A DNA stretch of 64,000 nt from an uncultured Candidatus Saccharibacteria bacterium (GTDB taxonomy: Bacteria; Patescibacteriota; Minisyncoccia; Phycocordibacterales; UBA9973). The notes beneath the pieces were generated by a model, which was not told where the DNA came from, did no database searches, and was given only the letters and a program-made list of their open reading frames with translations. Positions 3,081 through 56,632 of this stretch are shown one piece after another; the stretch's first letter is position 1; each line of letters opens with the position of its first letter. A program made the translations under genes and the position numbers. Location of the stretch: positions 10,015-74,014 of the forward strand of contig CAZBZO010000005.1 in the NCBI GenBank assembly GCA_964496425.1, read 5' to 3'.

Positions 3081-4385
3081 ATGAAAAATACTCACACTGT
3101 TGATGTTGTGCTCGGACTCCAATGGGGCGATGAAGGTAAGGGGAAAATCGTCGATGCGCTTGCTCGTGACTACGATCTCGTGGCGCGCTTTCAAGGTGGG
3201 CCGAACGCTGGGCATACGCTCGAATTTGATGGCAAACACATCGTCCTCCACACTATTCCGTCTGGAGTATTTGTTGGTGCGACCAACTTGATTGGTGCCA
3301 ATGTCGTGCTTGATCCAATAAGTTTTGTAGAGGAGCTTGCCCAGGTGGAGCCGCTCGTCAAAAATATTCGCGAGGTTCTCCTCATTGCCCGTGAAGTCAA
3401 CATTATTATTCCGACCCATAAAATTCTCGACAAGGCTGCAGAAGTGGCTAAAGGTGAAGCTAAAATCGGCACAACTTTGCGAGGAATCGGGCCGGCATAT
3501 ATGGATAAAACCGGCCGCAATGGACTTCGCATTGGATACATCAGCGCGCCTGACTTTGCTACTCGATACGAAATGCTTAAAACCAAACACTTGAAACTAC
3601 TCGAAGCTCAAGGGTTTCTTGTGGATGCGGAGCTACTTTCAAAAAACGAAAAGGAATTTTTTGAAGCTATTGAAGTCATTAAAACATTTACACTTGCTAA
3701 CTGCTCCACGTATATGAATACTGCAATTGATGCTGGTAAGAAAATTTTAGGTGAAGGAGCACAGGGAAGCATGCTTGATATCGATCATGGATTTGTCTAT
3801 CCATTTGTGACCTCGTCGAGCACGACGTCGGCTGGCATGTGTACTGGGCTTGGTATTGCACCGCAGAAAATCGGTCGTGTGATCGGCATTACCAAAGCCT
3901 ACTGCACTCGCGTGGGTTCTGGTCCGTTTCCAACAAAGCTCACTGATGAATGGGGAGAAAAATTAAGACAGATTGGCCATGAATTTGGTGCGACGACCGG
4001 CCGACCGCGCGACTGCGGCTGGATCGATCTGCCTGTCCTCAAAAAAGCAATTTTACTCTCTGGTGTGACCGAAATCGCTATTACCAAGCTCGACATTTTA
4101 GATACTTTTGAAGAGATCAAGGTTTGCACGGCCTACTCTATAGATGGAGTGGAAACGACCGAGCTGCCGTTTGACCCAAATCTTTCTGTTATGACGCCAG
4201 TTTATAAAACCTTCCCTGGTTGGCAGACGTCGATTAAAGCGGCGACATCGTATGAGGCATTGCCAGAGAATTTAAAAACATTTGTTTCGTATCTTGAAAC
4301 CGAGCTTGGTGTACGGGCGACGTATCTTTCTACGGGCCCTGAGCGGGAAGCGACCATTATTCGCAATCGTACTGAAGTGGCATGA
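3081..4385 (+). CDS. purA: Adenylosuccinate synthetase
   Basis: GDEGKGK P-loop, GPNAGHT, and the TTGRPR..GW motif. Start chosen at MKNTHTV (3081) for a 434-aa protein; the track ORF starts at 2982. Confidence 0.92.
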   Translation: MKNTHTVDVVLGLQWGDEGKGKIVDALARDYDLVARFQGGPNAGHTLEFDGKHIVLHTIPSGVFVGATNLIGANVVLDPISFVEELAQVEPLVKNIREVLLIAREVNIIIPTHKILDKAAEVAKGEAKIGTTLRGIGPAYMDKTGRNGLRIGYISAPDFATRYEMLKTKHLKLLEAQGFLVDAELLSKNEKEFFEAIEVIKTFTLANCSTYMNTAIDAGKKILGEGAQGSMLDIDHGFVYPFVTSSSTTSAGMCTGLGIAPQKIGRVIGITKAYCTRVGSGPFPTKLTDEWGEKLRQIGHEFGATTGRPRDCGWIDLPVLKKAILLSGVTEIAITKLDILDTFEEIKVCTAYSIDGVETTELPFDPNLSVMTPVYKTFPGWQTSIKAATSYEALPENLKTFVSYLETELGVRATYLSTGPEREATIIRNRTEVA

Positions 4386-14846: not shown

Positions 14847-14861
14847 TTTTACATAAAAAAA

Positions 14862-14897
14862 GGGCGGTCTGATAATTCAGACCGCCCTTTCAATTTT
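14862..14897. terminator. Rho-independent terminator (GGGCGGTCTGA-TAAT-TCAGACCGCCC then T-run)
   Basis: Perfect 11-bp GC-rich stem followed by TTTCAATTTTTAATT. Lies between the convergent purF (+) and the downstream minus-strand genes. Confidence 0.8.
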
Positions 14898-15266: not shown

Positions 15267-15447
15267 GATTGTTGATTTTTGAGTTTAGAAATTAGTTTGT
15301 GAAAAGCTCTGTTTACCACAGGGGATAGACAAGGCTTTTCACAAACCGACTCAAAACTAATTTTTGTCAGAGAACAGTTATTAATAGTAATTATAGCAAA
15401 AATATCCTTATTTGTCAAGGATAAAAAACCTTGTATTTAAATGGTTT

Positions 15448-17502: not shown

Positions 17503-17592
17503 TTTTTTAAATTATTTTTTCGATATTAACACTAAATTTTAAATAAGTCAAATTTTCTACTATTTTAAATTTAGTTGTGTTACTATTCCGGC

Positions 17593-22035: not shown

Positions 22036-22115
22036 AGTGGAGTAGTTTTTAAATTGTTTATATTATAATAACACTAAAATTTATTATAGTCAAATTTGAT
22101 ATAAAAAAATATGCC

Positions 22116-22749: not shown

Positions 22750-22870
22750 ATGTTCGGATTTTGAAAGGTTTAGAATTTTGCTTACAATACCAACAATTTA
22801 CGTTATAGTCAAATTTTTTTTGAGATTGCAAGTACCTATTAAAAAGAAAGGTGAGTTTAAAAAAAATTAG

Positions 22871-24776: not shown

Positions 24777-25901
24777 ATGCAAAAAATCGGCATTGTCGGC
24801 GGAGGACAACTTGGGCGTATGCTTGTTGAAGCTGCAGATCAGCTTCACTTTGAGACGATTGTCCTTGATCCGACACCACGCGCTCCTGCTGGGCAGGTTG
24901 CAACCGAGCAGATCATAAAAAGTTTCAAAGATCCTGAAGCGATTCGTGAGCTCGCCGATCGCGTGGATTTTCTGACCTTTGAAATTGAGCAAGTGCATGC
25001 CGAAGTGCTGGAAGAGATTGCAAATGATGGCAAGCCGGTCAATCCATCGCCTTCCACATTGAAAATAATCAAAGACAAATTTGAACAGAAAGCGTTTTTG
25101 CAAAACGCTGATATTCCGGTGACAGATTTTGCATTGATCGAAACCAAGCACGATGTCTGGGAGCAAGCCAAAATCTTCGGCTACCCATTTCTTTTGAAAG
25201 CTCGTTTTGATGCCTACGATGGTCGCGGCAATGCGCTCATCAAAAGCGAAGACCAAATCGATTTTGCGTACGAGCATCTTTCCAAAAGCCCACTCTATGT
25301 TGAGCGGTTTGTACCGTTTGTCAAAGAGCTCTCGGCGGTGGTGGTGCGCGGAATGGACGGCGATATAAGATCATATCCGATCGTTGAGACGATTCATCGC
25401 AACAACATTTGCCATGAAGTCTTTGCGCCTGCACCTGTGGCAGAAGATGTGCGTGAGCGTGCTGAAGCACTTGGTCGCCAAACTCTGGAGCATTTGGGTG
25501 GAGTAGGAGTGTATGCGATAGAAATGTTTCTCACAGAAAATGGAAAAATCTTGGTCAATGAAATCGCGCCGCGCGTCCACAACTCGGGCCATCATACGAT
25601 TGAAGCCTGCGCCACGAGCCAATTTGAAAATCATATCCGTGCTATCACAAGCATGCCGCTTGGGAGTACTGATATGATAGTACCGAGGGCGGTGATGGTG
25701 AATATTTTGGGGGATCGGAGTGGGGAAGTAAAGCCTGAAGGTATAGAAGAGGCCGAAGCTTTGGGTGGAGTGGCAGTGCACATGTATGGTAAGATGGAAA
25801 CGCGACCGGAGCGGAAAATGGGGCATATTACAGCTATTGGGAGTACTCTCGAAGAAGTTCAAGCCAAGGCGCGGAAGGCGAGGAGTTTGATTACAATTTA
25901 G
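24777..25901 (+). CDS. purK: N5-carboxyaminoimidazole ribonucleotide synthase
   Basis: MQKIGIVGGGQLGRM ATP-grasp N-terminus. 374 aa. Confidence 0.9.
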   Translation: MQKIGIVGGGQLGRMLVEAADQLHFETIVLDPTPRAPAGQVATEQIIKSFKDPEAIRELADRVDFLTFEIEQVHAEVLEEIANDGKPVNPSPSTLKIIKDKFEQKAFLQNADIPVTDFALIETKHDVWEQAKIFGYPFLLKARFDAYDGRGNALIKSEDQIDFAYEHLSKSPLYVERFVPFVKELSAVVVRGMDGDIRSYPIVETIHRNNICHEVFAPAPVAEDVRERAEALGRQTLEHLGGVGVYAIEMFLTENGKILVNEIAPRVHNSGHHTIEACATSQFENHIRAITSMPLGSTDMIVPRAVMVNILGDRSGEVKPEGIEEAEALGGVAVHMYGKMETRPERKMGHITAIGSTLEEVQAKARKARSLITI

Positions 25902-26053
25902 TTTATTTTTTGGTACTTATCTTTGTGAGTCGCATAAATTTCTGCTGAAATTTTGCTCCCTCTCGACTCGTCGGGCCTATCGGTATTGATAGGCACCTGT
26001 AGACGGCCTGCAAGAGACTCCCAAAGACAAGTACCCAGAGTGTAAAGATTCAA

Positions 26054-26578
26054 ATGCAAAAAAAACCAATTGTGGGAATAATTATGGGTTCGGATTCGGA
26101 TTTACCGGTCATGCAGGAAGCAGCGGACATGCTCGAGAGTTTTGGTGTGCCGTATGAGATCACGGTGGTCTCCGCACACAGAACGCCAGATCGTTTGTTT
26201 GCATACGCAGTGAGCGCGAGCAAGCGCGGGATGAAAATTATTATTGCTGGTGCGGGTGGTGCTGCGCATTTGGCCGGTATGACCGCGAGTATGACGACGC
26301 TGCCAGTCATCGGTGTGCCCGTCAAAACCAAAACCATGGACGGGCTTGATTCGCTTCTTTCTATCGCTCAAATGCCGCCAGGGATACCTGTGGCGACTGT
26401 GGCGATTAATGGTGCCAAAAATGCTGGACTCCTTGCTGTGGAGATCTTGGCACTCGTGGATGTAAAACTTTCTACGAAACTTAGTAGTTATCGCGACCGC
26501 ATGAATGAAGAAGTAAAAGCAAAGGCTGAGAAATTAAAAAAGATAGGTGGCAAGAAATATTTGCAATCGAAAAAGTAA
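26054..26578 (+). CDS. purE: N5-carboxyaminoimidazole ribonucleotide mutase
   Basis: [32 protein letters not shown]. Classic PurE. Confidence 0.95.
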
Positions 26579-30030: not shown

Positions 30031-30032
30031 AA

Positions 30033-30072
30033 ATGTCCGATCAGAAGTTACTCTGACCGGACATTTGTTTGG
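30033..30072. terminator. Hairpin ATGTCCGATCAG..CTGACCGGACAT between convergent purB and a minus-strand gene
   Basis: 11/12-bp stem. A-run upstream and T-rich downstream. Confidence 0.55.
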
Positions 30073-53838: not shown

Positions 53839-54386
53839 ATTTTATATTATACACAAAAATAATTTAGGTTCGAACTTCCTAAGGAGGCAAGTTTAGAATT
53901 CATAAAAGAAAAAATCCACCTAGTAGTAGATTTTTTTCTACCACGAAGTGGATTAGTTTTTATTGATTCATCCAGTAGGAAATTTTTCCCCACCAGGTCA
54001 ATTCTGATCTATGTTTTTTCCAAAGGAAATCCAGTAGCCCCAGAATTGAATTGACTTTCGTTTCGGGCATTACTTTTTCGCCCGTTGACAAGGTTAAATT
54101 CATTAACTCACCTGTCTGTTTCGACCAGGTGGCTTGTGATTTGTAGTCAGCAAACATGTTCATTTTTGGTTATTTTATTGTGAGTAAAAATTATTTATTA
54201 AGTTCTCTCAATCTCCATAAAGAAACTGGGAGAACCTAATAAAAACTAACAATAAAATCCAAATATCAAAGAACTACACAACTCTTTACATTATAGCATA
54301 ATAGGACCTATTTGTCAAATGTTGCTCCGAACTTGGGATGATGCTCGAAAGAGTATTCTAGAGATAAAATAAGATCAATAAAGTAT

Positions 54387-54815: not shown

Positions 54816-54972
54816 AATTTAAGGGTAGCAAATTAAAGGAGTTTGATAAAGCGGTTGATTTGGCTCCGAACTTGGGATGAAGTTCGAAATGCAATTTTGA
54901 ATAATTAAACAAAAGAAAATCCGCAGTCTTGATAACTACGGATTTATTCTAGAGAATTAATTCTTCTGTCTT

Positions 54973-55473: not shown

Positions 55474-55953
55474 GGTTTTTTATTTAAAATGAGATTATTG
55501 AGTTGTCTCTAATCCCAAGCAGGGAACAGGGAAAACCCAACAAATCAACAATAAATAACCAAATATTTCAAAGGACTATTACTGAGAAAATAATAGCATA
55601 AAATATACAAAAAGTCAAATGCTCCGCGGATAGGAATTTCTCGGCTTACTGCCGCAGGTACTTTTCAATCTCGCAAGCTCGATAATGAAAAGTCTTTCGA
55701 ATCCTAACGCGAGTGAAGTAGTTCACTCGCTCCCGCAGGAGAGGTCATCAAAACAAAAACACCCGCAAGGGTGCTTTGTTTTGTGATGCTCCGAACCTGG
55801 GATGATGTTCGGAAGGCTATTCTTGAAAGTGGAAGGCAGTTTTGAGCTTGGAAATAAGGTCTTTAGGAGAAGGATACTCAATAGACCCGCTAACTTTTCA
55901 TATTTATTTTATTGAGTCAAAACCTATGCGCGAATGAGTGGGAAATGTTATAG

Positions 55954-56557: not shown

Positions 56558-56632
56558 TGGCTCCGCGGGTAGGATTCGAACCTACGACCAATCGCTTAAC
56601 AGGCGACCGCTCTACCACTGAGCTACCGCGGA
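56558..56632 (-). tRNA. tRNA-Asn (anticodon GUU) with encoded CCA
   Basis: The reverse complement folds as a cloverleaf. 7-bp acceptor stem UCCGCGG/CCGCGGA, D-arm GCUCAGUGGUAGAGC, anticodon loop CUGUUAA, T-arm GGUUCGAAUCC, discriminator G plus CCA. Confidence 0.9.

Follow-up and report, generated by a model that had tools for sequence, protein, structure and literature searches.

The purK-purE spacer and a second copy behind guaB

The window, by which we mean the whole stretch of 64,000 nucleotides analysed, carries purK (24777-25901; ATP-grasp, PurK_C) and purE (26054-26578; AIRC), both on the + strand. The start of purE is ambiguous: the longest open reading frame begins at 26054 and encodes 174 amino acids, while public gene calls begin at 26084, as does the identical public protein P0001 (164 amino acids). 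Depending on the start codon, the spacer between the two genes is 152 nt (ATG at 26054, the first) or 182 nt long (ATG at 26084, as in the public calls).

This spacer is filled by a 124-nt structured element (copy 2, 25912-26035), which matches R1, the covariance model of its family described below, with 63 bits on the - strand. Its outer stem, P1, begins 10 nt after the purK stop codon and pairs GGTACTTATCTTTGTGAGTC (25912-25931) with GACTCCCAAAGACAAGTACC (26016-26035), both arms being given as read on the + strand. An earlier note on this DNA had described an outer stem of CTTTGTGAGTC (25921-25931) and GACTCCCAAAG (26016-26026), in which 10 of 11 positions do pair; at its full length the stem is 20 bp long, has two mismatches and encloses two hairpins. 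What is an A·C mismatch of P1 on the + strand is a G·U pair on the - strand.

One of the two enclosed hairpins, P2 (25932-25956), corresponds to what the note had called the core palindrome. On the - strand it reads GCA and AAAUUUC, an AGCA loop, GAAAUUU, a bulged A and UGC, and 10 of its 10 pairs covary across the family. The core sequence, CATAAATTTCTGCTGAAATTTTGCTCCCT, is present at 25933-25961, one base away from its estimated position. P2 is joined by a GGA junction strand (25957-25959; TCC on the + strand), invariant in the alignment of 47 sequences, to the P3 arm (25960-26015), which on the - strand has a 3-bp base helix CUU/GAG, then a conserved internal loop GCA/GA and then a distal stem. 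In copy 2 the distal stem is enlarged by an extra hairpin at about 25974-25995, and this includes the inner hairpin CCTATC (25976-25981) and GATAGG (25988-25993) that had been pointed out earlier. Folding energies relative to shuffled sequences are -49.8 kcal/mol (z -5.8) for the + strand and -58.3 kcal/mol (z -7.2) for the - strand, which is the better of the two. The element is identical in six further contigs of the same organism from different samples.

A diverged paralogue, copy 1 (1953-2062; 42.6 bits on the - strand), lies directly after guaB (479-1942, + strand; IMP dehydrogenase, IMPDH), the stop codon of which is 10 nt ahead of it. Here P1 is formed by 1953-1970 with 2046-2062, P2 by 1973-1997 and P3 by 2020-2045, with an extra hairpin at 2001-2019. 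The earlier proposal of a second core copy, and of a genuine structured, palindrome-containing element present twice, was borne out: the only other match to the core in the window with at most three mismatches is at 1974-2002, where zero are expected from shuffles, and R1 run over the 64 kb returned exactly two sites, 25921-26025 (63 bits) and 1962-2054 (42.6 bits), both on the - strand. The two copies have the core in common and unrelated outer stems, which gave a first hint of selection for pairing. Both are atypical of the family, copy 2 in its extra hairpin within P3 and copy 1 in the one between P3 and P2.

The window holds further repeats and hairpins. Other long simple hairpins, with arms of 14-21 bp, loops of 3-10 nt and no three-way-junction head, are found at 389-438, 2965-2995, 14859-14890, 15295-15346 and 30031-30066, and may be terminator-like structures. 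Repeat family D1, an AT-rich motif of 35 nt with TATAGTCAAATTT or AAGTCAAATTT at its end, occurs three times (17521-17555, 22063-22097 and 22782-22816) and might serve as a common promoter or operator motif. Another repeat, GCTCCGAACTTGGGATGATGCTCGAAA, is 32 nt long; its three copies are 84-88% identical and lie at 54319-54350, 54858-54889 and 55783-55814, with spacings of 539 and 925 nt. The - strand carries a tRNA gene at 56561-56632. Both GC skew and AT skew are positive from 1 to about 44 kb and negative from about 44 to 60 kb, and the change of sign near 44 kb suggests a switch in replication or gene-strand orientation.

Common architecture and the folding strand

Members of the family are hairpins of 90-150 nt. 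On the strand complementary to the pur mRNA, they all display a long, sequence-variable P1 and a three-way junction with P3 and P2, in the order P1, a single U, P3, the GGA junction strand, P2 and the return strand of P1. P1 spans 13-43 bp (median 26) and is free in sequence, with a conserved C-G pair at its end. At the base of P3 is a helix of 2-3 covarying pairs; above it come an internal loop with G-N-A opposite G-A and a distal stem, usually with a GACG loop. The strand between P3 and P2 is GGA, or NGA in diverged copies. In P2, three pairs are followed by seven and the loop is AGCA, replaced by ANNA in diverged members, with a bulged A on the 3' side of the helix.

We built R1 from 47 members. 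In its alignment, which was fitted to the model so that covariation counts lean towards structure, 96.1% of cells pair (75.7% in shuffles), 17 of 19 pairs have changed on both sides, and sliding the partner columns lowers pairing to 30-61%. RNAalifold, run on an alignment fitted to no structure, recovered P2 and P3, with double changes in 8 of 15 predicted pairs. The most persuasive evidence for a conserved fold comes from diverged paralogues with compensated stems: two contigs carry a copy with an AU-rich P2 beside one whose P2 is wholly GC, for example GCG CUGCGAG AGCA CUCGCAG A CGC, and these GC-rich paralogues keep the loop and the bulged A. Across the family, structure is kept far better than sequence.

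Searches of Rfam 15 with both window copies and two typical members returned no family at the gathering score and none at E up to 10; the sub-threshold matches were to miRNA precursors only and involved the long stem. Full-text literature searches found no published description of the element, which is apparently uncatalogued. A small open reading frame (GGAG, hairpin, AUG) was rejected, as neither the AUG nor the downstream frame is conserved.

The two P1 arms of 71 non-redundant elements were aligned with scoring symmetrical for both strands. The wobble pairs in these alignments are strongly asymmetric: 110 positions are G·U on the - orientation (A·C in the + reading) and only 34 are the reverse, and by element 43 favour the - orientation and 8 the + (p = 7e-7; 71 non-redundant elements). 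Known replication- and transcription-linked deamination biases predict the opposite asymmetry, and we therefore infer that selection acts on a single strand, the complement of the pur mRNA. The - strand also has the lower minimum free energy in 14 of the 17 elements first examined, and the conserved unpaired residues are all purines on this strand. In a large subgroup, P1 is surrounded by GCTCG...CTCGC, which is 5'-GCGAG/CGAGC-3' on the - strand. There it forms two Watson-Crick pairs and a tandem sheared G·A at the base of P1, in place of the C·U mismatches of the + strand. The strand that appears to be selected for folding is thus the complement of the one on which the element had been read before, and in the window it is antisense to guaB and to the pur operon.

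Distribution, placement and turnover

With a strict core pattern, 15 loci were detected in genome assemblies (Paceibacterota, Minisyncoccia and MAGs labelled 'Saccharibacteria'), and with a looser one 81 in metagenomes, about 75 of them true. Wherever the record names the organism, these 15 genome and approximately 75 metagenome loci all belong to Patescibacteria. Pattern scans and the covariance model together yield about 100 copies in Patescibacteria contigs; R1 gave 107 matches in about 750 kb of loci, including diverged extra copies within the same loci. One 8.5-kb locus has four copies, and inverted pairs are found back to back, about 50 nt apart, at L015:4240-4434, L091:134-330 and L029:7701-7902, the last two of which correspond, with the arrangement conserved between these two contigs. 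In the sampled DNA there is roughly one copy beyond the seed match per 56 kb; the 64 kb of the window contain two copies. A genome of 0.6-1 Mb would probably contain roughly 10-30 copies, and this is probably a lower bound because R1 favours AU-type P2. A phage origin was rejected: a scan of viral contigs gave only chance matches and an unrelated phage gene.

The genes next to the element are diverse. They include those for the pilus ATPase, uvrD-ksgA, uvrC-ddl, rpmE-prfA, rpoD, rpsI, secY-adk-map, S10-tuf, gatB-obg and alr/murB/eno/pyk, and one site lies upstream of dnaA; none of the 15 genome-collection loci has a purine gene as neighbour. The earlier note had placed the element in the purK-purE spacer and raised the question of termination or attenuation there. 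Its relatives adjoin dozens of unrelated housekeeping genes in both orientations, and this dispersal behind unrelated genes argues for a genome-wide repeat or small-RNA family rather than a regulator of the purine operon.

Position and orientation were counted for the 44 elements with credible open reading frames on both sides. Co-directional gene runs account for 34 of them, 23 with the window's + reading in mRNA sense and 11 in the opposite orientation, while 7 lie between convergent and 3 between divergent genes. The median distance from the edge of the element is 12.5 nt to the adjacent stop codon and 51 nt to the adjacent start codon. Relative to local GC skew, the elements divide only 31:19 by orientation, and a replication-oriented element was rejected for this reason. 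Neither a U-tract terminator nor a promoter is found at either window copy, which speaks against a terminator role between purK and purE. Across the family, a T-rich tail follows the element in 5 of 70 cases on one strand and in 2 of 70 on the other. A search for a sigma-70-like signal, the promoters of these bacteria being uncharacterised, showed no enrichment of a -10-like box on either side. On the gene strand of L007 and L013, the element has a classical bidirectional terminator behind it and so lies, in the window's + reading orientation, within the rpoD 3' UTR.

Near-identical whole elements, arms included, are found with sharp boundaries at unrelated loci within one metagenome. Such duplicates extend over 147 nt at 98% identity (L081/L086), 120 nt at 96% (L029/L084) and about 114 nt (L017/L096 and L032/L070). 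Target-site duplications were sought at the boundaries of nine sharp-bounded pairs, and no direct repeats were present. The GCTCG...CTCGC 'direct repeat' was rejected as such a duplication, being the tandem G·A helix extension of the - strand. Terminal inverted repeats are conserved within sub-lineages (L081/L086, L029/L084 and the GCGAG-end group), not family-wide. In the adk-map spacer, the whole element lies in opposite orientations in L009 and L014, and the wobble positions of the arms flip along with the head.

Conservation at the purK-purE site is not supported by two relatives, in whose purK-purE spacers the element is absent or decayed. The spacer of L150, which encodes an 80% identical PurE, contains at 2858-2945 a hairpin with arms of about 24 nt and the 27-nt head CTCGGATCTCCTCGCTACGCTCGGCCA, without P2, that looks like a decayed copy of the element. 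L151 (77% identical PurE) has a 43-nt spacer with neither element nor bare hairpin. The uvrD-ksgA spacer is similarly variable: it is occupied by the element in L002, L012 and L058, by a Y1_Tnp gene in L153, and by a different multi-hairpin element in L154. The latter (L154:2370-2480) has an outer stem AACCTCACC/GGTGAGGTT around two GC-rich hairpins; more than one family of complex intergenic hairpins, and probably several, seem to be present in these genomes. The idea that a small core was inserted into terminator hairpins already in place was rejected, as the whole hairpin including its arms is the repeated unit in several lineages; it is also disfavoured by the empty site of L151, which has no bare hairpin, and would imply that pre-insertion sites were loop-less 32-bp palindromes.

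Where copies are retained at orthologous sites, their cores are 98.6% (L002/L012) and 100% (L007/L013) identical, and the flanking coding DNA is 73-87% identical. That the core is better kept than the coding DNA beside it points to purifying selection or gene conversion acting on individual copies.

HUH Y1 transposases, which could be candidates for mobilising the element, are common in these lineages. The one in the uvrD-ksgA spacer of L153, where related genomes carry the element, is a 225-residue Y1_Tnp (IS200-like, HUH) protein encoded at 1778-2455; it passes the Pfam threshold (27.9 bits, cut-off 23), and its gene is flanked on both sides (1741-1762 and 2461-2482) by the palindrome TAGACACCAGGTGTCTA. 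Through a homologue in L059, more than 1,200 relatives of about 220 residues were traced in Patescibacteria. A RAYT-like gene of about 220 codons is syntenic in three lineages (methyltransferase / Y1 / gyrA), an order that recurs across several lineages of Paceibacterota, and a single-copy, vertically inherited pattern of this kind is described for RAYTs (PMC5581495). The Y1_Tnp genes of L158 and L163-L165 are flanked by a short hairpin of their own, TTCGGGTTTCGTAAACCCGAA, seen only around them in our sample. The short hairpin TTCGGGTTTNNNAAACCCGAA has four copies around each RAYT-like gene, one of them inside the gene (L158:2968-2988, 3156-3176, 3677-3697 and 3724-3744), and is found also in L163, L164, L165 and L059 (38-58), but at no other place in the loci sampled. 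R1 detected no element within 3 kb of the RAYT-like genes at eight loci (L158-L165; best score 11.6 bits), nor any match on L153 at E up to 1. An association with RAYTs is not supported: in the five Y1_Tnp loci inspected, which represent two RAYT lineages, the Y1_Tnp genes are flanked by hairpins other than the element, and R1 places no element near the RAYT-like genes.

Readings of the element and known systems

In the reading that we find best supported, though tentatively, the element is a dispersed palindromic element of REP- or MITE-like character that acts as a folded single strand; we give this reading a probability of roughly 0.4. The observed basis for it is the family with its structure, folding strand and distribution, the sharp-bounded duplicates, and the gain, loss and inversion at orthologous sites. 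It is also in keeping with the negative searches for independent transcription and intrinsic termination, and with how common HUH Y1 transposases are in these lineages. The element would lack autonomy and reach new intergenic sites by being copied in the form of a folded single strand, with the conserved unpaired purines of its head as the recognition feature for a putative trans-acting protein. Copies would survive only at harmless sites, just past stop codons, and the location between purK and purE would consequently be incidental. The pur mRNA contains the complement, in which a stem of about 20 bp is still able to form; this stem might influence transcript processing or stability, without purine sensing. 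Both mobility and a protein partner are what we infer from these patterns, and the folding strand may be DNA or RNA.

Several findings count against this reading. No transposase is linked to the element, there is neither a target-site duplication nor a family-wide end motif, and the asymmetric centre is conserved while the arms vary, which is opposite to the pattern of REPINs and MITEs. Old paralogues keep the fold by means of fully compensated stems, and the orientation relative to GC skew, as given above, is only weakly biased. A three-way junction, G·A pairs, a bulged A and tetraloops are, moreover, typical of functional RNAs. The constraint that individual copies appear to be under exceeds what a purely selfish repeat needs.

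A family of structured small RNAs, or of RNA modules with a host function, produced from the window's - strand and bound by a conserved protein, is the main alternative, possible though doubtful. The protein would contact the GNA/GA loop, the bulged A and the tetraloops, and the long P1 would provide stability or an RNase III processing site. Strong covariation in every helix, conserved nucleotides that are unpaired purines, and G·U and tandem G·A pairs that favour one strand are all consistent with such RNAs, as are within-genome paralogues that keep the fold with entirely different stem sequences, orthologous cores far better conserved than adjoining coding DNA, and a family that spans deep Patescibacteria lineages. 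The difficulty lies in transcription: upstream there is no enrichment of a -10-like box, the element is not followed by a U-tract, and the spacers that flank it are often shorter than 50 nt, which leaves no room for a promoter. In two thirds of the co-directional gene runs, such an RNA would run antisense to both neighbours, and the terminator at L007 and L013 is on the opposite strand, so the strand that is certainly transcribed there is that of the mRNA. Decayed and missing orthologous copies argue in addition against an essential role per locus.

Rather unlikely is an undescribed, Patescibacteria-specific class of multi-copy structured RNA with a three-way junction, G·A motifs and tetraloops that has a conserved protein partner or is a ribozyme, and whose transcripts would mostly lie antisense to housekeeping genes at their 3' ends. 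If true, it would add a new ncRNA to these reduced genomes, and with it perhaps a further layer of regulation or RNA processing.

Patescibacteria (candidate phyla radiation) make up a large, mostly uncultured share of bacterial diversity and have tiny, tightly packed genomes, in which, to our knowledge, almost no regulatory RNAs and very few non-coding elements are known. The element, conserved, structured, 100-150 nt in length, recurrent behind core genes in many lineages and with a core better kept than the coding DNA beside it, is either a long-lived intragenomic replicator or a new functional RNA. The replicator would be of unusual design, with a conserved centre and free arms, and either answer informs genome evolution, mRNA 3'-end biology or RNA-protein machinery in these bacteria. 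R1 is a direct means of taking a census of the family.

A new small self-cleaving ribozyme, present like twister or hammerhead in many copies and varied contexts, we regard as improbable. It would fit a multi-copy element that is independent of context and orientation and whose three-way junction combines conserved junction and loop nucleotides with variable stems, and it agrees with the lack of an Rfam match, by which the element belongs to no known ribozyme class. However, similarity to any ribozyme model is absent even at E up to 10; small ribozymes do not typically have P1 stems as long as the 20-36 bp seen here, a conserved candidate for a cleavage site did not emerge, and the problem of transcription is the same as for a small RNA.

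In a further alternative, a double-stranded DNA site, a dimeric protein would bind AAATTTC-N4-GAAATTT as its operator or as a parS-like site, perhaps with a cruciform presenting it. We consider such a site very improbable: the wobble asymmetry between strands cannot stem from selection on duplex DNA or on a cruciform. The palindrome is near-perfect and highly conserved in many copies, including the one upstream of dnaA, but its half-sites covary rather than being fixed (AAUUUUC, AUUUUUC and fully GC-rich variants exist), the bulged base breaks its symmetry, and P1 and P3 covary too. Finally, cis-acting control by an RNA, through termination or attenuation in the purK-purE spacer and behind guaB and perhaps with purines as the signal, can practically be dismissed: although both window copies adjoin purine-nucleotide genes and the mRNA-sense strand folds stably too (-49.8 kcal/mol), purine-gene neighbours number 0 of 15 in the genome collection, both orientations occur, there is no U-tract, the purK-purE spacers of close relatives are without the element, the strand under selection is the antisense strand of the operon, and no purine, ZTP or PRPP riboswitch model matches. 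In annotation, the element should not be labelled a purine riboswitch or attenuator.

Among known structured RNAs, 4.5S/SRP RNA, 6S RNA, Y RNA and phi29 pRNA resemble the element in combining a long terminal helix of free sequence with a conserved apical or junction domain that has non-canonical purine pairs. The element differs from them in having no Rfam match, several to many diverged copies per genome, and no promoter or terminator that we could find.

Among repeats, REPINs consist of two inverted, highly conserved REP ends with a less conserved spacer between them, and REP hairpins are kept by compensatory changes (PMC3116915); one end of the REP palindrome bears a conserved tetranucleotide tag, GTAG or CGTC (PMC3733652). 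The cognate RAYT (Y1_Tnp) gene has the repeat on its flanks. Like REPs and REPINs, which form their hairpins in ssDNA or mRNA, the element is extragenic, dispersed, located at gene 3' ends in either orientation, hairpin-forming, subject to compensatory changes and without target-site duplication, and single-copy syntenic Y1_Tnp genes occur in the same bacterial group. Unlike in REPINs, it is the asymmetric P2/P3 centre that is conserved and the outer arms that vary. A GTAG or CGTC tag is absent from the ends of the element, CGTC being present only as the complement of the P3 loop. The RAYT-like genes here adjoin other short hairpins instead of the element, and its copy number is modest, roughly one per 30-60 kb.

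With the MITE-like repeats of enterobacteria and neisseriae (ERIC, Correia, BOX and RUP), the element shares the character of an intergenic palindromic unit of 100-150 nt that is co-transcribed with its neighbours in either orientation, and it has sub-lineages with near-identical whole units at different loci. MITEs carry target-site duplications, whereas the element has none and lacks a family-wide terminal inverted repeat; its paralogues are related by structure-preserving compensatory changes, not by plain sequence identity.

Integron attC sites are similar in that sequence varies while the fold is kept, in their position directly after open reading frames, in an apex that can branch and in a folding strand that is the complement of the upstream open reading frame. 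The attC boxes R'' (RYYYAAC) and R' (GTTRRRY) were found in 0 of 71 elements in either orientation, and the element, unlike attC, has a conserved core of about 65 nt. An attC site was rejected, there being no boxes, cassette arrays or integrase and the neighbours being core housekeeping genes. The element is thus a member of none of the REP/REPIN, MITE and attC families, but it is these that it behaves most like.
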